Shown: positions 4,123-57,106, numbered from the stretch's first letter. The stretch is 64,000 bases of DNA from Escherichia coli (GCF_003334255.1 NZ_QOWU01000010.1); one strand, 5' to 3'. Program-made: numbers and translations. Notes: generated from the sequence alone by a model not told the origin.

Positions 4123-4758
4123 TCAGATGTCAACTTTCTCTTTGTATTCACAAAGATCTTCAATAATACAAGAGCCACAGCGGGGCTTGCGGGCAATGCA
4201 GGTATAACGCCCGTGCAGGATCAACCAATGGTGGCAGTCGACTTTAAACTCTGCTGGAACCACTTTCAGTAGCTTTTCTTCTACCTGTTCGACGTTTTTC
4301 CCCGGCGCAAATTGAGTACGATTACAAACGCGGAAAATGTGCGTGTCGACAGCAATAGTCGGCCAGCCGAATGCAGTGTTTAATACGACGTTGGCTGTTT
4401 TACGACCTACGCCGGGCAGGGCTTCAAGCGCAGCACGATCTTCCGGAACCTCGCCATTATGCTGCTCCAGCAAGATACGGCAGGTTTTGATGATATTTTC
4501 TGCTTTGCTGTTATAAAGCCCAATCGTTTTGATATAGGTTTTCACCCCTTCAACGCCCAGTTCAAGCATCGCTGCAGGCGTATTCGCCACCGGGTAGAGT
4601 TTCGCCGTCGCCTTATTAACACTGACATCGGTCGCCTGAGCGGAAAGCAGTACGGCAATCAGCAATTCAAAAGGCGAACTGAAATTAAGCTCGGTGGTGG
4701 GATGAGGATTGTTCTCACGCAGGCGAGTGAGGATCTCCAGGCGTTTTGCTTTATTCAT
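4123..4758 (-). CDS. nth: endonuclease III (DNA glycosylase/AP lyase)
   Basis: 211-aa ORF with HhH motif and C-terminal 4Fe-4S motif C-X6-C-X2-C-X5-C (CIARKPRCGSCIIEDLCEY). Confidence 0.93.
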   Translation of the reverse strand: MNKAKRLEILTRLRENNPHPTTELNFSSPFELLIAVLLSAQATDVSVNKATAKLYPVANTPAAMLELGVEGVKTYIKTIGLYNSKAENIIKTCRILLEQHNGEVPEDRAALEALPGVGRKTANVVLNTAFGWPTIAVDTHIFRVCNRTQFAPGKNVEQVEEKLLKVVPAEFKVDCHHWLILHGRYTCIARKPRCGSCIIEDLCEYKEKVDI

Positions 4759-11332: not shown

Positions 11333-11604
11333 AAAAGGTCCATAAAATAATTAATACCAAAGGGGTAGGTATTATTAGTGATGATAAAATTTCACCAAAA
11401 GTGAACGCTTGTGTTATTACAATAATAAGAATGCACTGATGGCAAATATTCAGGGATGAAAAACTGCTCTGAAAAGAGTAACGCGCTTTACTATCCCTGA
11501 CAATCACCAACAACATCGAACAAGATAATAAATTCCTGGTTTAATATCCGACAAGTGAAAACATGCACCCGGACGGGCAGCATGTCGCTCCACAAGTGCA
11601 GAGC

Positions 11605-11730: not shown

Positions 11731-11972
11731 TACAGCCCACATCTCTCTTGATTGATCCATTAACTTCAGGGGGTAAATGTTACTTAGCAATAATAGCTCC
11801 AGCAAGATTTTTACTGAGGTTTTTGCGATATTTAGCTTTTGTCGTTGGAAAATTCGCTATTTTTTTGACTTAAGTTAAACAACATCCCTTATTGCTGGCA
11901 GGTTATTAAACTGTTGAGCGTGGGTAAAGGATAGTGTCAAATAGCCATCATACTTCAATGAGAGGCAATGAC

Positions 11973-13013
11973 ATGAGCGACAACATCCGTGTTGGGTTGA
12001 TTGGGTATGGTTATGCGAGCAAAACCTTCCATGCGCCCCTGATTGCGGGCACGCCCGGGCTGGAACTGGCGGTAATCTCCAGCAGTGATGAAACAAAAGT
12101 AAAAGCCGACTGGCCAACGGTTACGGTTGTCTCTGAGCCGAAGCATCTGTTTAACGATCCCAACATAGACCTGATTGTCATTCCTACACCCAACGATACC
12201 CATTTCCCGTTAGCCAAAGCGGCGCTTGAGGCGGGTAAACATGTGGTCGTTGATAAACCCTTTACCGTGACACTGTCACAAGCGCGAGAGCTGGATGCGC
12301 TGGCAAAAAGCCTGGGGCGTGTGCTGTCTGTATTCCATAACCGTCGCTGGGATAGCGATTTCTTGACGCTAAAAGGTTTACTCGCGGAAGGCGTGCTGGG
12401 TGAAGTTGCTTACTTTGAGTCTCATTTTGACCGCTTCCGTCCGCAGGTGCGCGATCGTTGGCGTGAACAGGGCGGCCCAGGCAGCGGTATCTGGTACGAT
12501 TTAGCACCACATCTTCTTGATCAGGCCATTACGCTTTTTGGTTTACCGGTCAGCATGACGGTAGATTTGGCACAGTTACGGCCCGGAGCGCAGTCGACCG
12601 ATTATTTCCACGCCATCTTGTCCTATCCACAGCGGCGAGTCATTTTACACGGTACCATGCTGGCAGCCGCTGAGTCAGCACGGTATATCGTGCATGGATC
12701 CCTAGGCAGTTATGTGAAATATGGCCTCGATCCACAGGAAGAACGTCTGAAAAATGGCGAGCGTCTACCGCAGGAAGACTGGGGCTACGATATGCGTGAT
12801 GGCGTACTTACCCGCGTGGAAGGTGAGGAACGTGTCGAAGAAACGCTGTTGACGGTGCCTGGGAATTATCCGGCTTACTATGCGGCTATTCGTGATGCGT
12901 TAAATGGCGATGGTGAAAATCCGGTTCCGGCAAGCCAGGCAATCCAGGTAATGGAGTTGATTGAGCTGGGCATCGAATCCGCCAAACATCGCGCGACTTT
13001 GTGCCTTGCATGA
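11973..13013 (+). CDS. ydgJ: Gfo/Idh/MocA-family oxidoreductase
   Basis: ATG at 11973 (MSDNIRVGLIGYGYASKTFHAPLI, Rossmann N-terminus) preceded by GAGG; synteny. Confidence 0.85.
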   Translation: MSDNIRVGLIGYGYASKTFHAPLIAGTPGLELAVISSSDETKVKADWPTVTVVSEPKHLFNDPNIDLIVIPTPNDTHFPLAKAALEAGKHVVVDKPFTVTLSQARELDALAKSLGRVLSVFHNRRWDSDFLTLKGLLAEGVLGEVAYFESHFDRFRPQVRDRWREQGGPGSGIWYDLAPHLLDQAITLFGLPVSMTVDLAQLRPGAQSTDYFHAILSYPQRRVILHGTMLAAAESARYIVHGSLGSYVKYGLDPQEERLKNGERLPQEDWGYDMRDGVLTRVEGEERVEETLLTVPGNYPAYYAAIRDALNGDGENPVPASQAIQVMELIELGIESAKHRATLCLA

Positions 13014-41335: not shown

Positions 41336-42240
41336 ACTCTTTATTGAGATCGCTTAACAGAACGGCGATGCTTTGACCTCCCGCTGTTTGTTCAAGCGCA
41401 ATTTTGACAATAATTGTCAACGGCACGGAAAGCAGCATACCCACCGGTCCTAACAACCATCCCCAAAAAATCAACGACAAAAATACCACCAATGTGGAAA
41501 GCCCCAGCCCACGCCCCATGATACGCGGCTCCAGAATATTGCCGAAGACCAGATTAATCAGCAGATATCCCGCCAGCACCAGCAACGCTTCGTAGAAGCC
41601 ATTAAACACCAGTACCTGAGCGATAGGGGGGATTGCCGCGAGGACTGAACCAATATTCGGGATGTAATTAAGCGCAAAGGCCAGCAATCCCCAGACAAAA
41701 GCGAAGCGAACATCGAGTGCGGCGAGCATCGCCCAGGCGACCAGGCCGGTGATGATGCTGATGGCTGTTTTCAGCACCAGATAATGAGAAACACTGTCAA
41801 TCGCACGTTGAATCGCCGCCATCCCTTCAACCGGACGCGCCATCATTTGCTGAAATTTTCCGGGCAATTGTGGCACTTCGAGCAGCATAAACAGCACCGT
41901 CAGCAGCAATAAAAATATTGATGACATGGCATTAGATAACTGCGTCAATAAGTTGGTGAGCAACGTCATCGCCGCGTTCGGATCAATATAATGCGCCAGC
42001 TGGTCAACTGAGACGTCAATCCCTACGCGTTGCAACAACGGTTCAAGCGCTTGCAGCGGCGTCATAATAGAGTTGCGATATTGCGGTAACGTCCGCGTCA
42101 ACTCGTTGAGCGCGGAACCCAGATAAGCTAATAGCAACACCATCGCCATCACGATGATGGTCATCAAAATCGACACCGCCAGTACACGCGGCACACGCCA
42201 GCGGACCATGTGTTGCACCAGCGGGTTAAGAATAACAGCA
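41334..42240 (-). pseudogene. tqsA: tqsA (AI-2 exporter) 3' fragment, separated from its 5' end by the island
   Basis: Frame encodes ...[26 protein letters not shown]... to the normal C-terminus (SDLNKE); upstream of codon AVI the frame hits TGA/TAA stops in island DNA. Confidence 0.85.
42232..42240. repeat. left copy of 9-bp direct repeat (att core / target duplication)
   Basis: ATAACAGCA; identical copy at 57098-57106; both lie within tqsA codons 43-46. Confidence 0.7.
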
Positions 42241-42367
42241 TTTTATCATTTAGTGTTTTTTGCTGTTTCATAATGTTTCAGGCTGTGCATTATGTTTTTG
42301 ATTATCAACAGATTTGTGATTTTCCTTGTTCCAGCTTGTTTCACGTTGTAGCCCTTTGTGCAACGAT

Positions 42368-42391
42368 CGGTGTAGTCACTGGTGTAGTCAC
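42368..42391. promoter_or_regulatory. tandem GGTGTAGTCAC repeat near left end (candidate integrase arm-type site)
   Basis: CGGTGTAGTCACTGGTGTAGTCAC; near-identical copy at 57001-57024 near the right end. Confidence 0.4.
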
Positions 42392-42415
42392 TTTTTCGTA
42401 AAGAGGGGGTAAAAC

Positions 42416-43645
42416 GTGAGCAGAGCAATGAACAAACTGAGCGATACCTTGCTAAGGAAACTTCATGGTAAGCCAGCGGAGAAAAACACGTTTTATAGTG
42501 ATGGCGGAAACCTGAGCGTGAAATATTTAACATCAGGGAAATTGACCTGGTATTTCACATACAGGGCCGGAACGGGAAGGGAGACACGACCCGAACGCAT
42601 TAAGCTGGGAAGTTATCCTGATCTGAGCCTGAAAGCAGCCAGGGAAAAAGCCGCACAGTGTCGCACATGGCTGGCTGAGGGGAAAAATCCACGTCATGAG
42701 ATGAATTACACCGTACAGGAAGCGTTAAAGCCCGTAACGGTTGGCGATGCGCTCACCTACTGGCTTGAGTATTACGTAAAGGAAAACCGCGTGGATTATA
42801 TCGCCCTGAAAAGGCGACTTAATAATCACGTAATACAGCAGATTGGTGCTATGCCGCTGGATAAATGCGAGCTACGGCACTGGCTGGCCTGTTTTGACCA
42901 GGTGGCAAAGCGAACGCCTGTTACTGCCGGATTCGTGCTACAGGCGTGCAAACAGGCGCTTAAGTTCTGCCGTAGGCGGCGCTATGCAATCAGCAACGTT
43001 CTGGACGATCTGAACGTGGCGGACGTTGGGAAAAAACCGGATATAAGCGAACGTGTCTTAAGTAACAAAGAACTTGGCGAATTATTGCAGGCACTGGACA
43101 AAAAAATATTTTCCCCTTACTACGTCGCGTTAATCCGCCTCCTGATTGTCTTCGGAGCCAGGACGGTAGAACTGAGGCTATCGGAGATCGGGGAGTGGGA
43201 TTTTACGGAAATGCTATGGACCGTTCCGAAGGAGCACAGCAAAACGAAGGTCGCAATATTCCGGCCCATACCGGAAGCGATCCTGCCGTTCGTCACGCAG
43301 CTGGTGGAGCAGAACAGGCACACGGGCTTATTGCTGGGGGAAGTGAAACAGGAGGCCAGCGTATCGCAGTATGGAAGATTAGCGCACAGGAGGCTTAATC
43401 ATCCTCACTGGTCACTGCATGACATCCGGCGCACCTTTACAACCATGCTGAACGATTTAGGCGTTGATCCGCATGTCGTGGAGCAGCTTACAGGTCATCA
43501 GATGCCAGGAATGCAGCGAGTTTATAATCATTCCCGTTATCTGGATGCTAAACGCAATGCGCTGGATATGTGGATGGAGCGGTTAGGGATACTGGCGGGA
43601 ACACATGAAAACGTAACCACGCTACCAGTAGCCAGAAGAAAATAA
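42416..43645 (+). CDS. int: tyrosine integrase, P4-type
   Basis: 409-aa ORF, GTG start after AGAGGGGG; N-terminal arm-binding domain, C-terminal catalytic region with HDIRRT and downstream Tyr (RVYNHSRY). Confidence 0.9.
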   Translation: MSRAMNKLSDTLLRKLHGKPAEKNTFYSDGGNLSVKYLTSGKLTWYFTYRAGTGRETRPERIKLGSYPDLSLKAAREKAAQCRTWLAEGKNPRHEMNYTVQEALKPVTVGDALTYWLEYYVKENRVDYIALKRRLNNHVIQQIGAMPLDKCELRHWLACFDQVAKRTPVTAGFVLQACKQALKFCRRRRYAISNVLDDLNVADVGKKPDISERVLSNKELGELLQALDKKIFSPYYVALIRLLIVFGARTVELRLSEIGEWDFTEMLWTVPKEHSKTKVAIFRPIPEAILPFVTQLVEQNRHTGLLLGEVKQEASVSQYGRLAHRRLNHPHWSLHDIRRTFTTMLNDLGVDPHVVEQLTGHQMPGMQRVYNHSRYLDAKRNALDMWMERLGILAGTHENVTTLPVARRK

Positions 43646-43832
43646 TTTTTTTCGTGTTTTTTCAGTATGCGCATACTGGATATGCGAACAGATACAACAT
43701 GCAACAATGAGCAACAATGCGGAACAACTACGAACAAGAGACGAAAAAGTGTACGGATTTATAAGTAGCTGATTTTTAATGTGTTACTGGTTTTTTATAC
43801 ACTAGCGAATCACTCTTTAAATAGCGAGAAAA

Positions 43833-44019: not shown

Positions 44020-44208
44020 GTGTTAAGCACTGATCGGTTTATACGTGAAAAAGAATGCGAAAAGCTAACAGGCCTTAGCCGCTCATGCCGCTACCGCCTG
44101 GAAAAGGCCGGACAATTCCCATCACGTCGTAAACTTGGCGGTCGTTCCGTTGGCTGGTCTTTATCCGAGGTTCTGGCCTGGAAGGATAGCTGCAAGGCAG
44201 TTCATTAA
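44020..44208 (+). CDS. alpA: AlpA-family phage transcriptional regulator / excision activator
   Basis: 62-aa ORF, GTG start after AAGGGGG; MLSTDRFIREKECEKLTGLSRSCRYRLEKAGQFPSRRKLGGRSVGWSLSEVLAWK matches AlpA/Vis-type HTH proteins. Confidence 0.85.
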   Translation: MLSTDRFIREKECEKLTGLSRSCRYRLEKAGQFPSRRKLGGRSVGWSLSEVLAWKDSCKAVH

Positions 44209-44388: not shown

Positions 44389-44477
44389 GAACAGATAACA
44401 CGCTGCGCCGTTTGTGTGTGTGATCCCAAACATAAGCACGGGGATGATAGCCGCTATCAGGCTGGTGGGCAATGCAA

Positions 44478-45718: not shown

Positions 45719-46018
45719 ATGAGAACGTATTTATCTGGCTTTACTGCCAGCGGTTATGCACACCCCAAAATTATCCCCGGCGCTATTTATCTGGATAAGA
45801 ACGGTAACAGAGTAACGGTAAAAGAACTGATGTTTGACCGTGTGTATTTTATTCGTGATGGCTATTCATTTCATAGTTCGCTGAACGTGGAGATCTTTAT
45901 TAGCAGATTCCGGCGGGAAATCCCGCTTTCCAGAAATAACCATGTGTCATGTATGGATGTTGATAAAAAACTACAGGAACTGAAAAACATGATTGCCGCG
46001 TGGAGAGAGCAGAAATGA
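45719..46018 (+). CDS. hypothetical protein (99 aa)
   Basis: MRTYLSGFTASGYAHPKIIPGAIYLDKNGNRVTVKELMFDRVYFIRDGYSF...; stop overlaps primase start (ATGA). Confidence 0.5.
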   Translation: MRTYLSGFTASGYAHPKIIPGAIYLDKNGNRVTVKELMFDRVYFIRDGYSFHSSLNVEIFISRFRREIPLSRNNHVSCMDVDKKLQELKNMIAAWREQK

Positions 46019-47832
46019 AAAAAGCGCCAAATTTAAAACACCAGCCGCGTGACAAAATGACGGAAGTCATCATTTTTGCGGGTAGTGATGCGTGGGCACA
46101 TGCGAAGCAGTGGCAGGAACAGGACGGGCGACTGGCTGGCGATAACGTGCCACCTGTCTGGCTTGGAGAGCAACAACTTGCCGAACTGGACAACCTGCAA
46201 ATCGTACCGGACGGACGCTATCGCGTGCGTCTCTACCAGGCGGGGTTATTGCGTCCGGGGCTTGTTAATACCATCGGGCAGAAACTGGCAGCGGCAGGTG
46301 TCAGGGATGCTGATTATTACCCTGAAGGAATGCACAGCCAGAAACGGGAGAACTGGCGCGAATATCTGGAACGTGAGCGGGGAGAGCTGGCGGAAAAGAA
46401 AAAGGTAGTTGAACTGCCTGTAAAGAAAAAAGAGCGGGTAAAAGACGATAACGCTTCATCACTGGCGCTTAACCAGATGGGAGCAAGTCAACGCGGCGAA
46501 GTTCTCCTGGCACATTATGGCGGTGAACTGGCGATTCATGCTGACTCTGACACTGTTCACTATTACAACGGCGTTGTATGGGAGCCAGTACAGGATAAAG
46601 AATTACAGCGAGCTATGGCGCAGATTTTCATTGATGCGGAGATCAGCTATTCGCAGAACGCCATTAAATCGGCGGTCGATACCATGAAGTTAAGTTTGCC
46701 TGTAATGGGGAATACAGCCCGTAACCTGATTGGATTCAGTAACGGTGTTTTTGATACCCGGACAGGCGATTTTCGGGAGCATAACAAAAACGACTGGTTG
46801 TTAATTGCCAGTGAATTACCTTTCAGCCCACCAGCAGAGGGGGAAACGCTGGCAACACATGCGCCGAATTTCTGGAAGTGGTTACGCCGTTCGGTGGCTG
46901 AGAATGACCGCAAGGCGGATCGCGTACTGGCTGCATTATTCATGGTGCTGGCGAACCGGTACGACTGGCAGTTATTCATTGAGGTAACAGGTCCAGGGGG
47001 AAGTGGTAAAAGCGTGATGGCGGAGATTTGCACCATGCTGGCGGGTAAGGCCAACACGGTATCGGCAAGCATGAAGGCGCTGGAAGATGCCAGGGAACGC
47101 GCGTTAGTGGTTGGCTTTTCGCTGATTATCATGCCGGATATGACCCGTTACGCTGGTGATGGCGCAGGAATTAAGGCCATTACAGGCGGTGACAAGGTGG
47201 CAATCGACCCGAAGCATAAAGCCCCCTACTCAACACGCATTCAGGCGGTAGTGTTGGCGGTGAACAATAACGCCATGTCATTCAGTGACCGCAGCGGGGG
47301 GATTTCACGTCGTCGGGTGATATTCAATTTTTCGGAGGTTGTACCGGAAAACGAACGCGACCCCATGCTGGCAGAAAAAATAGAAGGAGAGCTGGCGGTT
47401 GTGATTCGCCACCTGCTTACTCGTTTTTCTGACCAGGACGCAGCTAAACGCCTGCTGTATGAGCAGCAGAAATCAGAAGAAGCTCTGGTGATAAAACGCG
47501 AGGGCGATTCGCTGGTGGACTTCTGCGGCTATCTCATGTCGTCGGTAATGTGTGATGGTCTGTTAGTGGGTAATGCCGAAATTATTCCGTTCAGTCCGCG
47601 CAGGTATCTTTATCACGCCTATCTGGCATATATGAGGGCACACGGATTCGGTAAACCTGTAACACTGACGCGCTTCGGTAAAGATATGCCGGGGGCAATG
47701 GCGGAATATGGCAGGGAGTATATGAAACGGAAAACGAAGCACGGTTTGCGTTCAAACGTGACACTGACGGAGGAATCAGAAGACTGGATGCCATCATGTG
47801 TATCGGTCACTAATGACGATAGCAAAAATTAA
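46015..47832 (+). CDS. P4 alpha-like replication protein (primase/NTPase, P-loop)
   Basis: 605-aa ORF with Walker A GPGGSGKS and Walker B-like region; followed immediately by TGTTCACC iteron cluster. Confidence 0.8.
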   Translation: MKKAPNLKHQPRDKMTEVIIFAGSDAWAHAKQWQEQDGRLAGDNVPPVWLGEQQLAELDNLQIVPDGRYRVRLYQAGLLRPGLVNTIGQKLAAAGVRDADYYPEGMHSQKRENWREYLERERGELAEKKKVVELPVKKKERVKDDNASSLALNQMGASQRGEVLLAHYGGELAIHADSDTVHYYNGVVWEPVQDKELQRAMAQIFIDAEISYSQNAIKSAVDTMKLSLPVMGNTARNLIGFSNGVFDTRTGDFREHNKNDWLLIASELPFSPPAEGETLATHAPNFWKWLRRSVAENDRKADRVLAALFMVLANRYDWQLFIEVTGPGGSGKSVMAEICTMLAGKANTVSASMKALEDARERALVVGFSLIIMPDMTRYAGDGAGIKAITGGDKVAIDPKHKAPYSTRIQAVVLAVNNNAMSFSDRSGGISRRRVIFNFSEVVPENERDPMLAEKIEGELAVVIRHLLTRFSDQDAAKRLLYEQQKSEEALVIKREGDSLVDFCGYLMSSVMCDGLLVGNAEIIPFSPRRYLYHAYLAYMRAHGFGKPVTLTRFGKDMPGAMAEYGREYMKRKTKHGLRSNVTLTEESEDWMPSCVSVTNDDSKN

Positions 47833-47846
47833 ACTTATGGAATAAC

Positions 47847-48076
47847 TGTTCACCACTGTTCACCCTGTCATAAATATCTTTTGTATCAGTATGTTATAGG
47901 GTGAACAGTTATTTATGAACTGTTCACCAAACTATTCACTGTTCACCTTTTTGATTGTTTATTGAGCTTCAAGGGTGAACAGTGGTGAATAGTTGGTGAA
48001 TAGTTTTTGTGAAACTGTTCACCCCTTAACATTATGAATTAAAAGATAAAATATCAAAAGGTGAACAGGTGAAGGG
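47847..48076. repeat. iteron cluster (TGTTCACC / GGTGAACA), candidate origin of replication
   Basis: At least 8 exact 8-mers in both orientations (47847, 47857, 47899, 47921, 47940, 47974, 48016, 48060) plus degenerate GGTGAATA copies in an AT-rich 230-bp non-coding stretch. Confidence 0.8.
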
Positions 48077-49055: not shown

Positions 49056-49060
49056 TCAAC

Positions 49061-49084
49061 AGCCGGAGAAATCCGGCTTTTTTT
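49061..49084 (+). terminator. rho-independent terminator
   Basis: AGCCGGAG-aa-ATCCGGCT hairpin followed by T7. Confidence 0.65.
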
Positions 49085-49404: not shown

Positions 49405-49414
49405 GCACGCATAC

Positions 49415-49436
49415 AGCCGGAGCAATCCGGCTTTTT
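49415..49436 (+). terminator. rho-independent terminator (near-duplicate of 49061-49084)
   Basis: AGCCGGAG-caa-TCCGGCT hairpin followed by T5. Confidence 0.65.
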
Positions 49437-49696
49437 GTCATTTTTTGTAAATTATTTGTTCGTGGTTGTTCCACGTTGTTCACTGACAGGATCGGCATAT
49501 TTTACCCGAACTGAATCATGAGTATTCTCGCCCGTGGTGCCAGGACGCTGGGGCCACTTTCCCGCCTGTTAATGTGCTCGCCAATATTCATTACCAGGCG
49601 GGAAAACGATCGGTGCGATTGCTGATTTCCTTATGAAAAACGGTTGAGTTTTTGCCGCGTCCTGGAGTTCCTTACTTAACCCCAGGACTTTTTTTT

Positions 49697-50854
49697 ATGC
49701 CGAGAATAATCGAATTACGCCAGCAGAAAACCGCCATTAAAAATCAGATGCGCGACATGCTGGAGAACGCGGAAAAAGAAAACCGCAGCCTTAACGATGC
49801 AGAGGGCGCAAAATTTGACGAATTACGCGCTAAAGCTGAATCCCTCGATAAAGACATTTCCCGCCTTGAAGCCATTGCAGACGAAGAGCGCAGCAAGCCA
49901 GGTAAAAGCAGCCAGACCACTGACCCGGCAGAACTCCGCAACTACATCCTGACAGGTGAAACCCGCGCATTAAGTACAGGCGTTCCCGCTGATGGTGGTT
50001 ATACCGTTATCCCCGAACTGAACACCGAAATCATGCGAATGCTGACGGATGAATCCACCATGCGCCGCATCTGTACCGTGAAGAAAATCAGCAGCAACGA
50101 GTTTAAGCAGCTTGTTTCCGCTGGCGGTGCGACCGTTAACCACGGTGAAGAGGGTAAGACACGCGAACAGACCAGCACCCCGCAGATTAACGAGGTGAGC
50201 ATTAAGCTGTATCCGGTCTATGCGTACCCGCGCACCACACAGGAAATCGTGGATTTTTCCGATGTGGACATCCTTTCATGGCTGACGGGTGAGATTGGCG
50301 ACACCTTCACGGAAACCGAAGAAAGCGATCTGGTTGTGGGCGACGGTGACAAAAAAGCAAAAGGTTTTTTATCCGTACCCCGTGCAGAGAAGAACGACAA
50401 AGAGCGTGATTTTGGTACGTTGCAGGTAATTAAACCTTCCGAATCTCTGGCGTGGACATCTGCGGACCCGCTGATCGACCTGAAATTTGCATTACGTAAA
50501 AAATACCGCAAAAACGCGGTCTGGGTGGTTAACTCCACGACGGCGGCAAAACTTCAGAAGGTGAAGAACGCGAACGGTGATTACATCTGGCGCGACCGTT
50601 TACAGGCGGGTGATCCTGATACGTTGCTGGGCCTTCCGGTCGAATATCTGGAGTTTATGCCTGATAACGTTATTGCCCTGGGTGACTTCAAACGCGGTTA
50701 CTACATTGTTGATCACGAAACAGGTGTTCGCACCAGACCGGACAACCTCACAGAGCCGGGCTTCATCAAAATTTTCACGCAGAAATATTTAGGCGGTGGC
50801 GTGGTGGATTCGAACGCGATCAAGATTCTGGAACTGCCACAGGACGACGATTAA
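49697..50854 (+). CDS. major capsid protein, HK97 fold, with N-terminal coiled-coil (delta/scaffold-like) region
   Basis: 385 aa from ATG 49697 (MPRIIELRQQKTAIKNQMRDMLENAEKENRSLNDAEGAKFDELRAK...); capsid-family core follows. Confidence 0.85.
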   Translation: MPRIIELRQQKTAIKNQMRDMLENAEKENRSLNDAEGAKFDELRAKAESLDKDISRLEAIADEERSKPGKSSQTTDPAELRNYILTGETRALSTGVPADGGYTVIPELNTEIMRMLTDESTMRRICTVKKISSNEFKQLVSAGGATVNHGEEGKTREQTSTPQINEVSIKLYPVYAYPRTTQEIVDFSDVDILSWLTGEIGDTFTETEESDLVVGDGDKKAKGFLSVPRAEKNDKERDFGTLQVIKPSESLAWTSADPLIDLKFALRKKYRKNAVWVVNSTTAAKLQKVKNANGDYIWRDRLQAGDPDTLLGLPVEYLEFMPDNVIALGDFKRGYYIVDHETGVRTRPDNLTEPGFIKIFTQKYLGGGVVDSNAIKILELPQDDD

Positions 50855-54392: not shown

Positions 54393-56037
54393 GTACGCAG
54401 AAGACGTAAAAACGGGCAAAATTCAGGCCTGTAAACGGTTAAAACAGGCCGTTAAACGGTACTTTTCGGACCTTAAAAGCCCCCTTTACACGTTCGATCG
54501 TGAGGTTGTGGATCGGTTTATTGCCTTTTCCAGGGTGTGCCCGCACGTAAAAGGGCCGATGCGTGGCAGACCCATTGAGCTGGAGCCGTGGCAGCAGTTC
54601 GCCTTTGCGTGCATCCTCGGCTTTAAGGTTAAGGCCACCGGACGGCGCAAATATACGAGCGCCTTTATCGAAGTGCCGCGCAAAAATGCTAAATCAACGA
54701 CCGCCGCGATTCTGGCTAACTGGTTTCTGATTATGGAGAACGGTCAGCAGGATATTTACACCGCAGCGGTGAGCCGTGACCAGGCGAGGATCGTATTTGA
54801 TGATGCGCGTCAGATGTGCATTTTATCCCGACCGTTACGCAGGCGGGTGAATATTCAGGCGCATAAGGTGATACACCCGAAAACCAACAGCCTGTTAAAG
54901 CCGCTGGCAGCAAAAGCGGCAACTATCGAGGGCACAAACCCCAGTCTTTCTATCGTGGACGAATACCACCTACACCCCGACAACGGCGTATATTCTGCGC
55001 TTGAACTGGGGATGGGGGCACGTCCCGAAGGGCTGTTATTTGCCATTACCACATCGGGAAGTAACGTCGTTTCAGCCTGTAAGCAGCATTATGATTATTG
55101 CTGCCAGATCCTGGACGGCGAAGAGGTTAACGAATCGCTTTTTGTGCTGATTTACGAACTGGACGACGAAAACGAGGTTGATGATCCGGAGATGTGGATA
55201 AAGGCGAACCCTAATATCGATGTTTCCGTGGATCGTGAAAAACTGGCCTCAACCATTCAGAAAGCGCGGGGTATTCCGTCGCAATGGGTGGAGATGATGA
55301 CAAAGCGATTTAATATCTGGTGTCAGGGGACTACCCCGTGGATGGGTAATGGTGCATGGGCTGAGTGTGCCGGAACGTTCACGGAGGAAGATTTACACGG
55401 TCAGGAGTGTTACGCGGGGCTGGACTTATCATCAACCAGCGATATTTCCAGCGTGTGCTATGCCTTTCCGGTCGGTAAAACCATTATGATGATTTCCCGT
55501 CATTATCTGCCGGAGTTCCAGCTACAGAACCCCGCCAATAAAAACCGCGCTGTCTATCGTCAGTGGGCTAAAGCAGGCTGGATACGCACAACGCCTGGCG
55601 ACTGCATTGATTACGACCGGATCAGAGATGACATCATGCAGGACGCGGAGAAATTTAATATCAGGCTGGTGGGCTTTGATACGTGGAACGCCACGCATCT
55701 CAGAACGCAATTACAGGGGGCAGGTTTTGAGGTGGAGCCGTTCCCGCAAACCTACCTCAGATTCAGTCCGGCGGCGAAATCGTTCGAAGTTTTTGTTAAC
55801 CGCAGGGTGATTGTGCATCGTGGCGATCCGGTGTTGTCCTGGTCGATGAGTAACGTCGTGATGCAGAGTGACGCGAACGCCAATATCAAGCCGAACAAGA
55901 AAAAATCACCGAACAAGATAGACCCGAGCGTGGCGGCGCTGATGGCGTTTGGTACATTCCAGGCAGAGCATGAGGATTTTGCTTTTGATATAAGCGACAG
56001 CCACCGCCAGAAACTGGAAGAATTTAGCGGGGTGTAA
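54376..56037 (+). CDS. terminase large subunit
   Basis: 553-aa ORF with ATPase P-loop region (VPRKNAKSTTAA) and C-terminal nuclease-type domain. Confidence 0.85.
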   Translation: MTAWNKYAEDVKTGKIQACKRLKQAVKRYFSDLKSPLYTFDREVVDRFIAFSRVCPHVKGPMRGRPIELEPWQQFAFACILGFKVKATGRRKYTSAFIEVPRKNAKSTTAAILANWFLIMENGQQDIYTAAVSRDQARIVFDDARQMCILSRPLRRRVNIQAHKVIHPKTNSLLKPLAAKAATIEGTNPSLSIVDEYHLHPDNGVYSALELGMGARPEGLLFAITTSGSNVVSACKQHYDYCCQILDGEEVNESLFVLIYELDDENEVDDPEMWIKANPNIDVSVDREKLASTIQKARGIPSQWVEMMTKRFNIWCQGTTPWMGNGAWAECAGTFTEEDLHGQECYAGLDLSSTSDISSVCYAFPVGKTIMMISRHYLPEFQLQNPANKNRAVYRQWAKAGWIRTTPGDCIDYDRIRDDIMQDAEKFNIRLVGFDTWNATHLRTQLQGAGFEVEPFPQTYLRFSPAAKSFEVFVNRRVIVHRGDPVLSWSMSNVVMQSDANANIKPNKKKSPNKIDPSVAALMAFGTFQAEHEDFAFDISDSHRQKLEEFSGV

Positions 56038-56419: not shown

Positions 56420-56890
56420 AAACTACGAAATTTTCGCAGTTTAATTAATGATCAGCTTAATCGCTAACCCGCTGATATTTTCGGAAACCTCAATTTGAGG
56501 AAGTCGGCGCGGTAACTCGCTGAACTTTAAGCAAAGTGCAAAATTGCGCTTGCTGAATAATCATTATGATTACGCAGATGATTAAGGAATGACCGAAGGC
56601 GGAAATTCGCCTGTGGTTAATGGGGGAGTTGCAGATCTGCAACTCGACCATGAAACTACGGAAACTACCCGTAGTTTGGGTAGTAAGAGTAACACCCAGA
56701 TTTTGGGTCTTACTCGTGATACCCAAATTTGGGGTATCAGTGGCAACCATAACGACTTTCGTTACGGTTGATGCTTTTACCCCATTGGGGGAAAGGTATT
56801 ACGATAATCATAACACCTACCGAACAGGTAAAGCCCACCAGCCTGATTAACGTTTAACCGGAAAAAAATTCCGGTAGGTGGGGATCCCCA
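56420..56890. other. palindrome-dense non-coding region at island right end
   Basis: Ten dyad-symmetric elements including perfect 20-bp palindrome GAGTTGCAGATCTGCAACTC (56626-56645) and three TACCC..GGGTA-type dyads about 25 bp apart; overlapping small ORFs lack RBS. Confidence 0.6.
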
Positions 56891-57000
56891 TATCGACATT
56901 AACGCCCCTCATGAATTGGTGCGCTTCCCCCTGGAAAGATGATCCGCCTGTATATTTCTTGTGTCTATTTGTTCCACGTTGTTTCATACAGTGCACCGAA

Positions 57001-57024
57001 CGGTGTAGTCACTGGTGTAGTCAT
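57001..57024. promoter_or_regulatory. tandem GGTGTAGTCA repeat near right end (candidate integrase arm-type site)
   Basis: CGGTGTAGTCACTGGTGTAGTCAT, counterpart of 42368-42391. Confidence 0.4.
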
Positions 57025-57097
57025 TTTGCGATTTTTGGCACTTTTTGCGGTGAAAATTATTTAATTAAATCAACGTGTTATGTGAAATAAGTTATAT

Positions 57098-57106
57098 ATA
57101 ACAGCA
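57098..57106. repeat. right copy of 9-bp direct repeat (att core)
   Basis: ATAACAGCA, identical to 42232-42240. Confidence 0.7.

Follow-up and report, generated by a model that had tools for sequence, protein, structure and literature searches.

Recombination directionality factors (RDFs) bind head to tail on direct repeats that recur once per helical turn, and some of them also control distant promoters through similar sites (PMC7498355). TorI of KplE1 binds GTTCG, GATCG and GTCCG, and three of its sites are phased at 10 bp in attL, next to PintS (PMC2951348). Among the phage-inducible chromosomal islands (PICIs), the AlpA protein of EcCICFT073 is needed for excision and transfer and activates PICI genes as well as its own promoter (PMC6092414). 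The tail-less capsids of capsid-forming PICIs (cf-PICIs), with packaged DNA, are made without a helper, and overexpression of alpA drives the reproduction of EcCIEDL933 (bioRxiv 10.1101/2025.02.11.637232). For EcCIEDL933 and EcCICFT073, which are close relatives of the island described here, helper-phage induction through alpA has also been published, together with packaging into small capsids that the island makes. Here we examine a 64-kb stretch of Escherichia coli DNA (GCF_003334255.1, NZ_QOWU01000010.1; the whole stretch is referred to as the window) that contains a cf-PICI inserted in the gene tqsA. The ends of this island are the two arms of a P4/CP4-57-type attachment (att) site, and each arm combines a tandem pair of 12-mers, very probably bound by the integrase of the island, with an array of TTGTTC units phased at 10 bp, for which its AlpA is the leading candidate.

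Tandem 12-mers at the island ends

Positions are counted from the first letter of the window, and the features on which the argument depends are the following.

42232–42240, no strand: attL crossover core ATAACAGCA, the left tqsA junction, placed by aligning both flanks to the unbroken tqsA of E. coli 5A (L001)
57098–57106, no strand: attR crossover core ATAACAGCA, from alignment with the empty tqsA site
42416–43645, plus strand: tyrosine integrase of 409 aa, with an Arm-DNA-bind_3 domain (residues 8–95) and a catalytic domain
44020–44208, plus strand: alpA, 62 aa, a winged-helix regulator/excisionase of the Phage_AlpA family
42369–42392, plus strand: attL pair of 12-mers, GGTGTAGTCACT twice, proposed integrase arm-type sites, ending 23 bp 5′ of the int start
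57002–57025, plus strand: attR pair of 12-mers, GGTGTAGTCACT GGTGTAGTCATT, proposed integrase arm-type sites
42303–42315, plus strand: near-consensus site for integration host factor (IHF), TATCAACAGATTT, 12 of 13 positions, between core and array; a weak call from consensus resemblance only
57068–57080, plus strand: exact match to the IHF consensus, AATCAACGTGTTA, with the attR 12-mers on one side and the core on the other

A first-pass annotation of the window had placed tandem repeats about 130 bp inside the left end and about 80 bp inside the right end and had read them as probable integrase arm-type sites; both the repeats and the reading stand. GGTGTAGTCA is present in four exact copies in the window (at 42369, 42381, 57002 and 57014), which form two tandem pairs with a period of 12 bp, one 128 bp in from the left junction and the other 72 bp in from the right. 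A search that allows one mismatch returns 7 copies where 2.1 are expected, a number that 0 of 100 shuffles reached. The pairs flank the 9-bp core ATAACAGCA, which is found at both junctions, and are distinct from it in sequence; they lie within a direct repeat of 76 nt that is common to the island ends (42319–42394 and 56952–57027, 76% identity).

The integrase has a separate N-terminal arm-binding domain, in that residues 8–95 match Pfam Arm-DNA-bind_3 (E 1e-17) and also PDB 3jtz, the N-domain of a CP4-like integrase. Close relatives keep both arm modules at tqsA, roxA/phoQ, abgR/smrA and cspD/clpS. Among the loci compared with the window (designated by L-numbers), L002–L008 and L044 have integrases that are 74–96% identical and near-identical arms at these four chromosomal sites, with unrelated cores (ATAACAGCA at tqsA, GGACATATTT at roxA/phoQ and AATATCGTGA at abgR/smrA; cspD/clpS is the fourth site). 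Across these sites core specificity has shifted, with the architecture of the arms retained.

Within this set of close relatives the 12-mer is not constant. It reads GGTGTAGTCACT in both tqsA islands; in the others it is GGTGTAGTTAAT in all four attL copies and in most attR copies, and some attR copies read GGTGTAGTCAAT. The window island and L006, with 12-mers containing GTCACT, have integrases with K/Q36-Y37-L38 and K42, and L002–L005, with GTTAAT, have R-H-S at residues 36–38 and L at residue 42. The AlpA proteins of the window island, L003, L005 and L006 are 100% identical, and those of L002 and L004 are 98% and 92% identical to them. Hence, with identical AlpA accompanying different 12-mers and integrase residues 36–38 and 42 differing, the change in the 12-mer tracks the integrase rather than AlpA.

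The same arrangement extends well beyond these islands. Other cf-PICIs, with integrases 41–47% identical, have pairs of their own at the same places: GGTGTATCACT(T/C) in L009 and L010, and TGTGTATTGCA in the helper-embedded L011, where the doubled motif published for helper-embedded PICIs (HE-PICIs) is thereby recovered. L011 (1–1811, 16778–17521) is itself a cf-PICI embedded in a prophage large-terminase gene, with the TGTGTATTGCA doubled motif in both arms. A scan across genera, with one genome per species, found 29 relatives of the integrase, 21 of them full-length, and all 21 full-length relatives have a tandem 12-bp pair 20–45 bp 5′ of int; where the right end could be reached (L014, L034), the pair recurs there as well. 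These 12-mers fall into six classes, P4 included, and each class has a distinct sequence in the N-terminal (Arm-DNA-bind_3) hairpin of its integrase, so that the arm sequence correlates clade by clade with the cognate integrase; the long, 94-aa class of AlpA, on the other hand, is spread over three 12-mer classes. Weighing against this evidence is that the covariation is itself clade-wise, each class representing one lineage. Nonetheless, the layout shared with P4 and the HE-PICIs, the agreement of 12-mer and integrase N-domain over six classes, and the variation of the 12-mer under identical AlpA make it very probable, as far as sequence comparison can indicate, that the integrase uses the 12-mers as arm-type sites, recognized by its N-terminal Arm-DNA-bind_3 domain.

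The assignment could in principle be reversed, with AlpA on the 12-mers and the arm domain of the integrase on the TTGTTC units, and the HE-PICI paper indeed did not decide whether integrase arm domains or AlpA bind the doubled motif (PMC10111431). However, the 12-mers differ under identical AlpA and follow the integrase N-domain, the TTGTTC units are unchanged across integrase classes, and TTGTTC arrays also occur at a promoter far from att. Furthermore, TorI-type RDFs bind GTTCG units, and the P4 record labels its own 12-mers as arm repeats. We regard the reversed assignment as highly improbable.

If the 12-mers are integrase sites, the four copies might serve one per subunit of the integrase tetramer, and the attL pair, which lies just 5′ of int, might also allow int to be autoregulated. 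The IHF consensus is matched 5 times in the window against 3.1 expected, and neither arm site is significant alone; the attR match is retained at the same position in L002, L003 and L006.

Phased TTGTTC arrays and their likeliest binder

The second kind of repeat occurs both in the arms and away from them.

42326–42365, plus strand: four 10-bp units that make up the array of attL (P′ arm), TTGTTCCAGC TTGTTTCACG TTGTAGCCCT TTGTGCAACG, proposed AlpA (RDF) operators
56959–56988, plus strand: attR (P arm) array, TTGTGTCTAT TTGTTCCACG TTGTTTCATA
43688–43737, minus strand: five-unit TTGTT array just 3′ of int, in the int–alpA intergenic region
49445–49485, plus strand: capsid-upstream array, TTGTAAATTA-T-TTGTTCGTGG TTGTTCCACG TTGTTCACTG, covering about −90 to −50 relative to the proposed capsid promoter

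These arrays were first seen through a 15-mer, TTGTTCCACGTTGTT, which the annotation had reported as exact at 49466–49480 and 56969–56983 with a variant at the left end. All of these are present, the left-end variant as two-mismatch copies at 42326 and 42336, and a further two-mismatch copy, which the annotation had not listed, lies on the minus strand at 43713–43727, for a total of 6 matches in the window against 0.16 expected. The 15-mer is not itself the repeating unit; it spans 1.5 units of a TTGT(T)(C) array with a 10-bp phase. When runs are defined as at least three TTGT at a spacing of 9–11 bp, with the expectation taken from shuffles, there are 5 in the window against 0.075 expected, and four of the five are inside the island (42326–42365 on the plus strand, 43737–43688 on the minus strand, 49435–49485 on the plus strand and 56959–56988 on the plus strand). 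The fifth, at 11494–11523 on the minus strand (TTGTTCGATG TTGTTGGTGA TTGTCAGG), is the sole run outside the island; it lies in a host intergenic region and is probably a chance match.

In both arms the array is followed by the 12-mer pair, and the register of the units is conserved along with their sequence. Taking the presence of direct repeats one helical turn apart in an att arm as the mark of RDF operators (PMC7498355), we find that each of the two arms has three or four units, exactly 10 bp apart. The attL array is kept in all relatives and the attR array in relatives as well, with substitutions falling between the TTGTT cores, and in 25 attL arms from many genera, anchored on their 12-mers, GTT stands at −41 in 21 arms, while 15 arms have it at −31 and 13 at −21, the autocorrelation of this signal being 0.53 at lag 10. 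The capsid-upstream array is kept in cf-PICIs from about 10 genera, irrespective of the type of integrase or AlpA. In the int–alpA intergenic region, EcCICFT073 has an array of six units; more generally, an array upstream of alpA was found only in window-type islands, where it is inverted, and in L029, and most other islands have an accessory gene in that place. The array of L029 (an Erwinia island with long AlpA) has six TGTTC/CGTTC units on the plus strand at 11956–12014, about 220 bp upstream of alpA. A de novo search of the arms of long-AlpA islands found no other phased repeats. L007 has three or four GAATAT units with a spacing of 12–13 bp just 3′ of int (4150–4190), and in the window a perfect 16-bp palindrome, CAGTATGCGCATACTG, at 43663–43678 separates the int stop codon from the TTGTT array on the minus strand; EcCICFT073 does not have this palindrome.

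The island encodes a small winged-helix RDF of its own, AlpA, which matches Pfam Phage_AlpA (E 6e-18), carries the PHROG annotation ‘excisionase and transcriptional regulator’ and matches PDB 8c3t, an AlpA family protein for which a literature search turned up no accompanying paper. It is a distant relative of TorI (26% identity over 42 aa, pairwise E 2e-4). The literature searched yielded no operator, footprint or binding data for the AlpA of any PICI. From the sequence and the published genetics of its relatives, we consider this winged-helix excisionase/activator the likeliest binder of the TTGTTC arrays, an assignment that we hold with moderate confidence; taken as one explanation, the 12-mers and the arrays together merit the confidence of this, their weaker part.

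If AlpA is the binder, it would occupy the arrays head to tail, one monomer per helical turn. On the arm arrays it would bend the DNA and help the integrase to assemble an excisive complex; the capsid array would be an upstream activating region from which AlpA would switch on the capsid-packaging operon; and the intergenic array would allow self-amplification of alpA, comparable to the activation by AlpA of the alpA promoter region in EcCICFT073. A single regulator induced by the helper would then couple excision, its own amplification and capsid production, although it should be said that we infer the direction of regulation.

Several observations weigh against AlpA as the binder. AlpA proteins of the 62-aa, 69-aa and 94-aa classes all go with one and the same TTGTTC core; the recognition-helix motif SRSxR(Y/F/W) is common to the window AlpA and the 94-aa class and reads CRTTRY in the types of L007 and L013–L024, a variation that is uninformative for covariation with the operator. 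The capsid-upstream array is near-invariant across islands with 62-aa and 94-aa AlpA, and long-AlpA islands have only one good TTGTTC unit in the arms, yet a full capsid array, so that the binder could be something more conserved than AlpA. In EcCICFT073, AlpA left the activity of Pint unchanged, though the array lies just upstream of int (PMC6092414). Classical PICIs with the same AlpA are without an array before their packaging genes, and the array 3′ of int is inverted, lies about 130–200 bp from the predicted alpA promoters and is absent from most other islands.

A conserved host protein, for example a response regulator of the OmpR/PhoB family, such as ArcA or TorR, that recognizes phased direct repeats of the TGTT type, would account for the conservation of the TTGTTC core across integrase classes, AlpA classes and genera, and a host factor would also fit with capsid production in the absence of a helper; alternatively, the arrays might merely be phased, bendable DNA. 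The first two capsid units, TGTAA-N6-TGTTC, are spaced by 11 bp and resemble what we take to be the ArcA type of direct repeat. ArcA and PhoP repeats are spaced by 11 bp, whereas the spacing in the arms is strictly 10 bp; the arrays are located exactly where the TorI sites are located in the attL of KplE1; the published genetics makes AlpA necessary for excision and expression; and host DNA, which makes up 49 kb of the window, contains only one such run. A host factor or simple bendability thus seems to us unlikely, if well short of negligible, and AlpA is preferred.

It is also conceivable that the arrays are weak iterons for the P4 alpha-like primase/replication protein. They have the TGTTC core in common with the origin iterons CTGTTCACC (47831–48048), and in L027 an apparent iteron, TGTTCCACC, is close to the unit TTGTTCCACG. 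However, the conserved part of the unit is TTGTTC and not the CACC tail, and islands with a RepA-type helicase (L002–L005) carry the same arm arrays as islands with a primase, because of which we rejected this very doubtful proposal.

The antiterminator AlpA of Pseudomonas aeruginosa was considered as a model and rejected, as it is an unrelated, larger protein that has the name alone in common. It is Q-like, exceeds 140 aa, forms a ring at the exit channel for RNA, and contains eight helices with DNA contacts at residues 128–142; its DNA element is a single GGGACG between −35 and −10.

A proposed capsid promoter and the capsid leader

Upstream of the capsid gene, the array is one of several conserved elements.

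49501–49528, plus strand: proposed weak sigma-70 promoter, with −35 TTTACC (49501–49506), a 16-bp spacer and −10 TATTCT (49523–49528), from blocks conserved across genera
49534–49557 and 49558–49605, plus strand: a pair of hairpins in the capsid leader that covary in an alignment of 13 cf-PICIs from about 10 genera
49659–49696, plus strand: third stem GTCCTGG/CCAGGAC (49659–49688) with T8, abutting the capsid ATG at 49697, read from the sequence

When the capsid-upstream regions of these 13 cf-PICIs are aligned, conserved blocks appear in a fixed order: a near-invariant block, TTTGTAAATTATTTGTTC, then two further phased units, then TTTAC(A/T)-16-TAT(C/G)TT, and then a hairpin. On this basis transcription of the capsid operon is predicted to start near 49535. 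A scan with a strict sigma-70 consensus found no promoter upstream of the capsid gene, the proposed one falling below threshold, and its prediction from conservation only is a further point against the scheme in which AlpA drives this operon. The array, at about −90 to −50, stands where upstream activators of weak promoters usually bind, and it lies directly 3′ of an intrinsic terminator (49415–49432), which would cut the capsid operon off from upstream transcription, such that the operon would need an activated promoter of its own. This terminator belongs to one of two 24-nt terminator hairpins of the form ACAGCCGGAG(A/C)AATCCGGCTTTTT, 96% identical, which are situated 354 bp apart at 49059–49082 and 49413–49436 and bracket a small gene upstream of the capsid promoter.

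The annotation had suggested that the shared 15-mer might couple expression of the capsid operon either to the att region or to a helper-encoded activator. The first part is retained in modified form: the element common to both places is the 10-bp-phased TTGTTC array, and we would replace the helper activator with the AlpA of the island itself. If the capsid array were instead the target of a late activator from the helper phage, its likeness to the att-arm motif would be superficial. PICI induction does depend on a helper phage, as published, the array precedes an operon of the late type, and a strong sigma-70 promoter was not found there. Yet the published tail-less capsids with packaged DNA form without a helper, which makes a helper-encoded late activator unlikely at this operon and is in keeping with self-control by the island; reproduction of EcCIEDL933 is promoted when alpA is overexpressed. 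Moreover, the same array is present in many genera, whose helpers are presumably different given the host range, and the motif also turns up in the att arms, a place with no obvious job for a late activator. We consider control by a late activator of the helper quite improbable.

Alternatively, the motif near the capsid gene could be an inherited or chance resemblance without function, with only the att-arm copies mattering. In this regard, the array is confined to cf-PICIs with an HK97-type module, and islands with the same AlpA and other packaging modules do not have it. Arguing the other way, the array is among the most conserved capsid-upstream blocks in about 10 genera, it keeps a fixed position relative to −35 and −10 while its surroundings vary, and phased runs have a very low chance expectation. 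A resemblance without function is therefore improbable, and an operator of AlpA remains the preferred reading of the capsid array.

The two hairpins of the leader are supported by covariation. In the alignment, 93% of cells are paired, 12 of 20 pairs show compensatory changes, and 0 of 500 shuffles scored as high; controls in which the pairing was slid pair in 33–53% of cells. The third stem holds an AGGA Shine-Dalgarno sequence inside its 3′ half, and a hairpin is seen by eye at the same place in other genera. A search of Rfam returned no family matching the capsid leader.

These features invite a broader and more tentative proposal, which we think possible rather than probable: a single AlpA operator code (TTGTTC, 10-bp phase) might hard-wire excision, alpA self-activation and capsid transcription in Enterobacterales cf-PICIs, with a structured leader (two covarying hairpins and a third that hides the Shine-Dalgarno sequence, followed here by U8) gating capsid synthesis by attenuation or translational control. 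If true, the operator code and the leader layer together would explain how capsids are produced without a helper.

Other features of the island and comparison with known systems

The assignment of the island to the cf-PICIs rests on the presence of int, alpA, a primase or replication gene and an HK97-type packaging module, on the lack of tail and lysis genes, and on a length of 10–15 kb. Matches to PHROGs and NCBIfam were obtained for every required gene; among the open reading frames (ORFs) between the att cores, some small ones of which were not profiled, no tail or lysis gene was found; and the length is 14.87 kb, measured core to core against the empty site. Prediction of ORFs and profile searches give the gene order integrase, alpA, P4 alpha-like primase, single-stranded DNA-binding protein (SSB) and a PerC-like gene, followed by the capsid-packaging module, which consists of an HK97-type capsid, protease, portal, head-closure and connector proteins, HNH, TerS and TerL. 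The primase is at the following position.

46000–47832: P4 alpha-like primase

Comparison with 5,426 complete E. coli genomes identifies the flanks as the two halves of tqsA, and the tqsA site is empty in most of these genomes, judged from an evenly spaced sample of the ranking. The insertion breaks tqsA into a 5′ piece of 54 codons and a 3′ ORF of 294 codons. In the region upstream of its capsid gene, an O157:H7 island of the EcCIEDL933 type (L046), located between roxA and phoQ, is 100% identical to the window, and EcCICFT073 occupies the roxA/phoQ site with an AlpA identical to the window AlpA at 59 of 62 residues.

Directly 3′ of the primase gene, direct and inverted CTGTTCACC repeats are packed into 47831–48048; CTGTTCACC is the same iteron as the type I repeats of P4 ori/crr (TGTTCACC), and this region is likely the island origin. 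A further repeat is the exact 15-mer GCCCACCAGCCTGAT, present three times in the island against 0.12 expected (44456–44470 and 55660–55677 on the minus strand, 56830–56847 on the plus strand; the last two copies share 18 nt). The plus-strand copy is in the 600-bp, hairpin-rich, non-coding right end, and the reverse copies are within the gene after alpA and within terL. Relative to those two mRNAs, an RNA from the right end would be antisense, which recalls, by analogy, the P4 CI RNA and the immunity pairing of seqA and seqC. Rfam searches matched no family in the right-end non-coding region and, at the gathering threshold, none in the whole island.

It is useful to consider what these observations mean for PICI biology. 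The doubled 12-bp motif is extended from one clade to a whole integrase family, and for the question of what binds it in HE-PICIs there is now strong sequence evidence for the integrase N-domain and not AlpA. AlpA is the master switch of Gram-negative PICIs, and the present comparison provides a base-level map of predicted integrase and AlpA sites. Capsid synthesis may be tied to the regulator of the island rather than to the helper, which fits the published helper-free, tail-less capsids. One can also imagine practical uses: the pairs of 12-mer and N-domain are natural specificity swaps for engineering delivery vehicles based on PICIs, and candidate points at which to control particle yield are the promoter and the leader.

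The closest likeness to the arm layout is in P4, whose GenBank record lists tandem pairs of a 12-bp ‘attP arm sequence repeat’, the first 5′ of int and the second beyond the core, in the same orientation, as in the window island. The P4 integrase likewise has an arm-type DNA-binding domain, and P4-type TGTTCACC origin iterons are found in the window island as well. The two differ in the 12-mer itself (TTGGGGGCATAA in P4 and GGTGTAGTCACT in the window island), in the gaps to the core (53 and 112 bp in P4, 72 and 128 bp in the window island), in the target, which is a tRNA gene for P4 and tqsA here, and in the capsid operon, which P4 does not have. Cali et al. in 2004 are said to have found that the Vis protein of P4, an AlpA-family member, is needed for excision and regulates late promoters, with boxes between int and the core; our search for a phased TTGTTC array in P4 found no clear one.

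The doubled motif of the HE-PICIs, tgTGTATTGCantgTGTATTGCa, is two co-oriented tandem 12-bp copies at about −81 and +132 of the attP centre (PMC10111431), and the corresponding edges in the window are at −77 and +133. That paper did not find the motif in other PICIs and left its binder open (PMC10111431), whereas here each integrase clade has a 12-mer of its own at the same places. In the attL of KplE1 (CPS-53), 10-bp-phased RDF units of the GTTCG type stand between the core and the int-proximal arm sites, by the int promoter (PMC2951348), and the window island likewise has its units there. The arm sites of KplE1 IntS, however, are of another type, with a TAAA motif, and overlap PintS. TorI represses intS, whereas AlpA left Pint unaffected in EcCICFT073. 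We know of no structural operon controlled by TorI.

In phages 186 and P2, the proteins Apl and Cox provide a precedent for one small protein acting on helical-turn direct repeats both at att and in a distant promoter region (PMC7498355), and the same logic is proposed here. Apl and Cox repress the promoters of the lysogenic/lytic switch, whereas the proposed action here is activation of the capsid operon and of alpA, and the protein families differ. CP4-57, the source of the name AlpA, has in its attL phased units of GTCC(C/G), after which comes a tandem pair of TAGGCCCA 5′ of intA, the layout seen here.

Finally, EcCIEDL933 and EcCICFT073 have the same int–alpA module, arms and arrays as the window island. 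These two islands lie between roxA and phoQ, with the core GGACATATTT and 12-mers ending in TTAAT, whereas the window island is in tqsA, with the core ATAACAGCA and 12-mers ending in TCACT; EcCICFT073 is also without the capsid array. In kind, what is described here is the logic of P4, KplE1 and 186 placed in a cf-PICI, and the arm layout is a further instance of a known arrangement.

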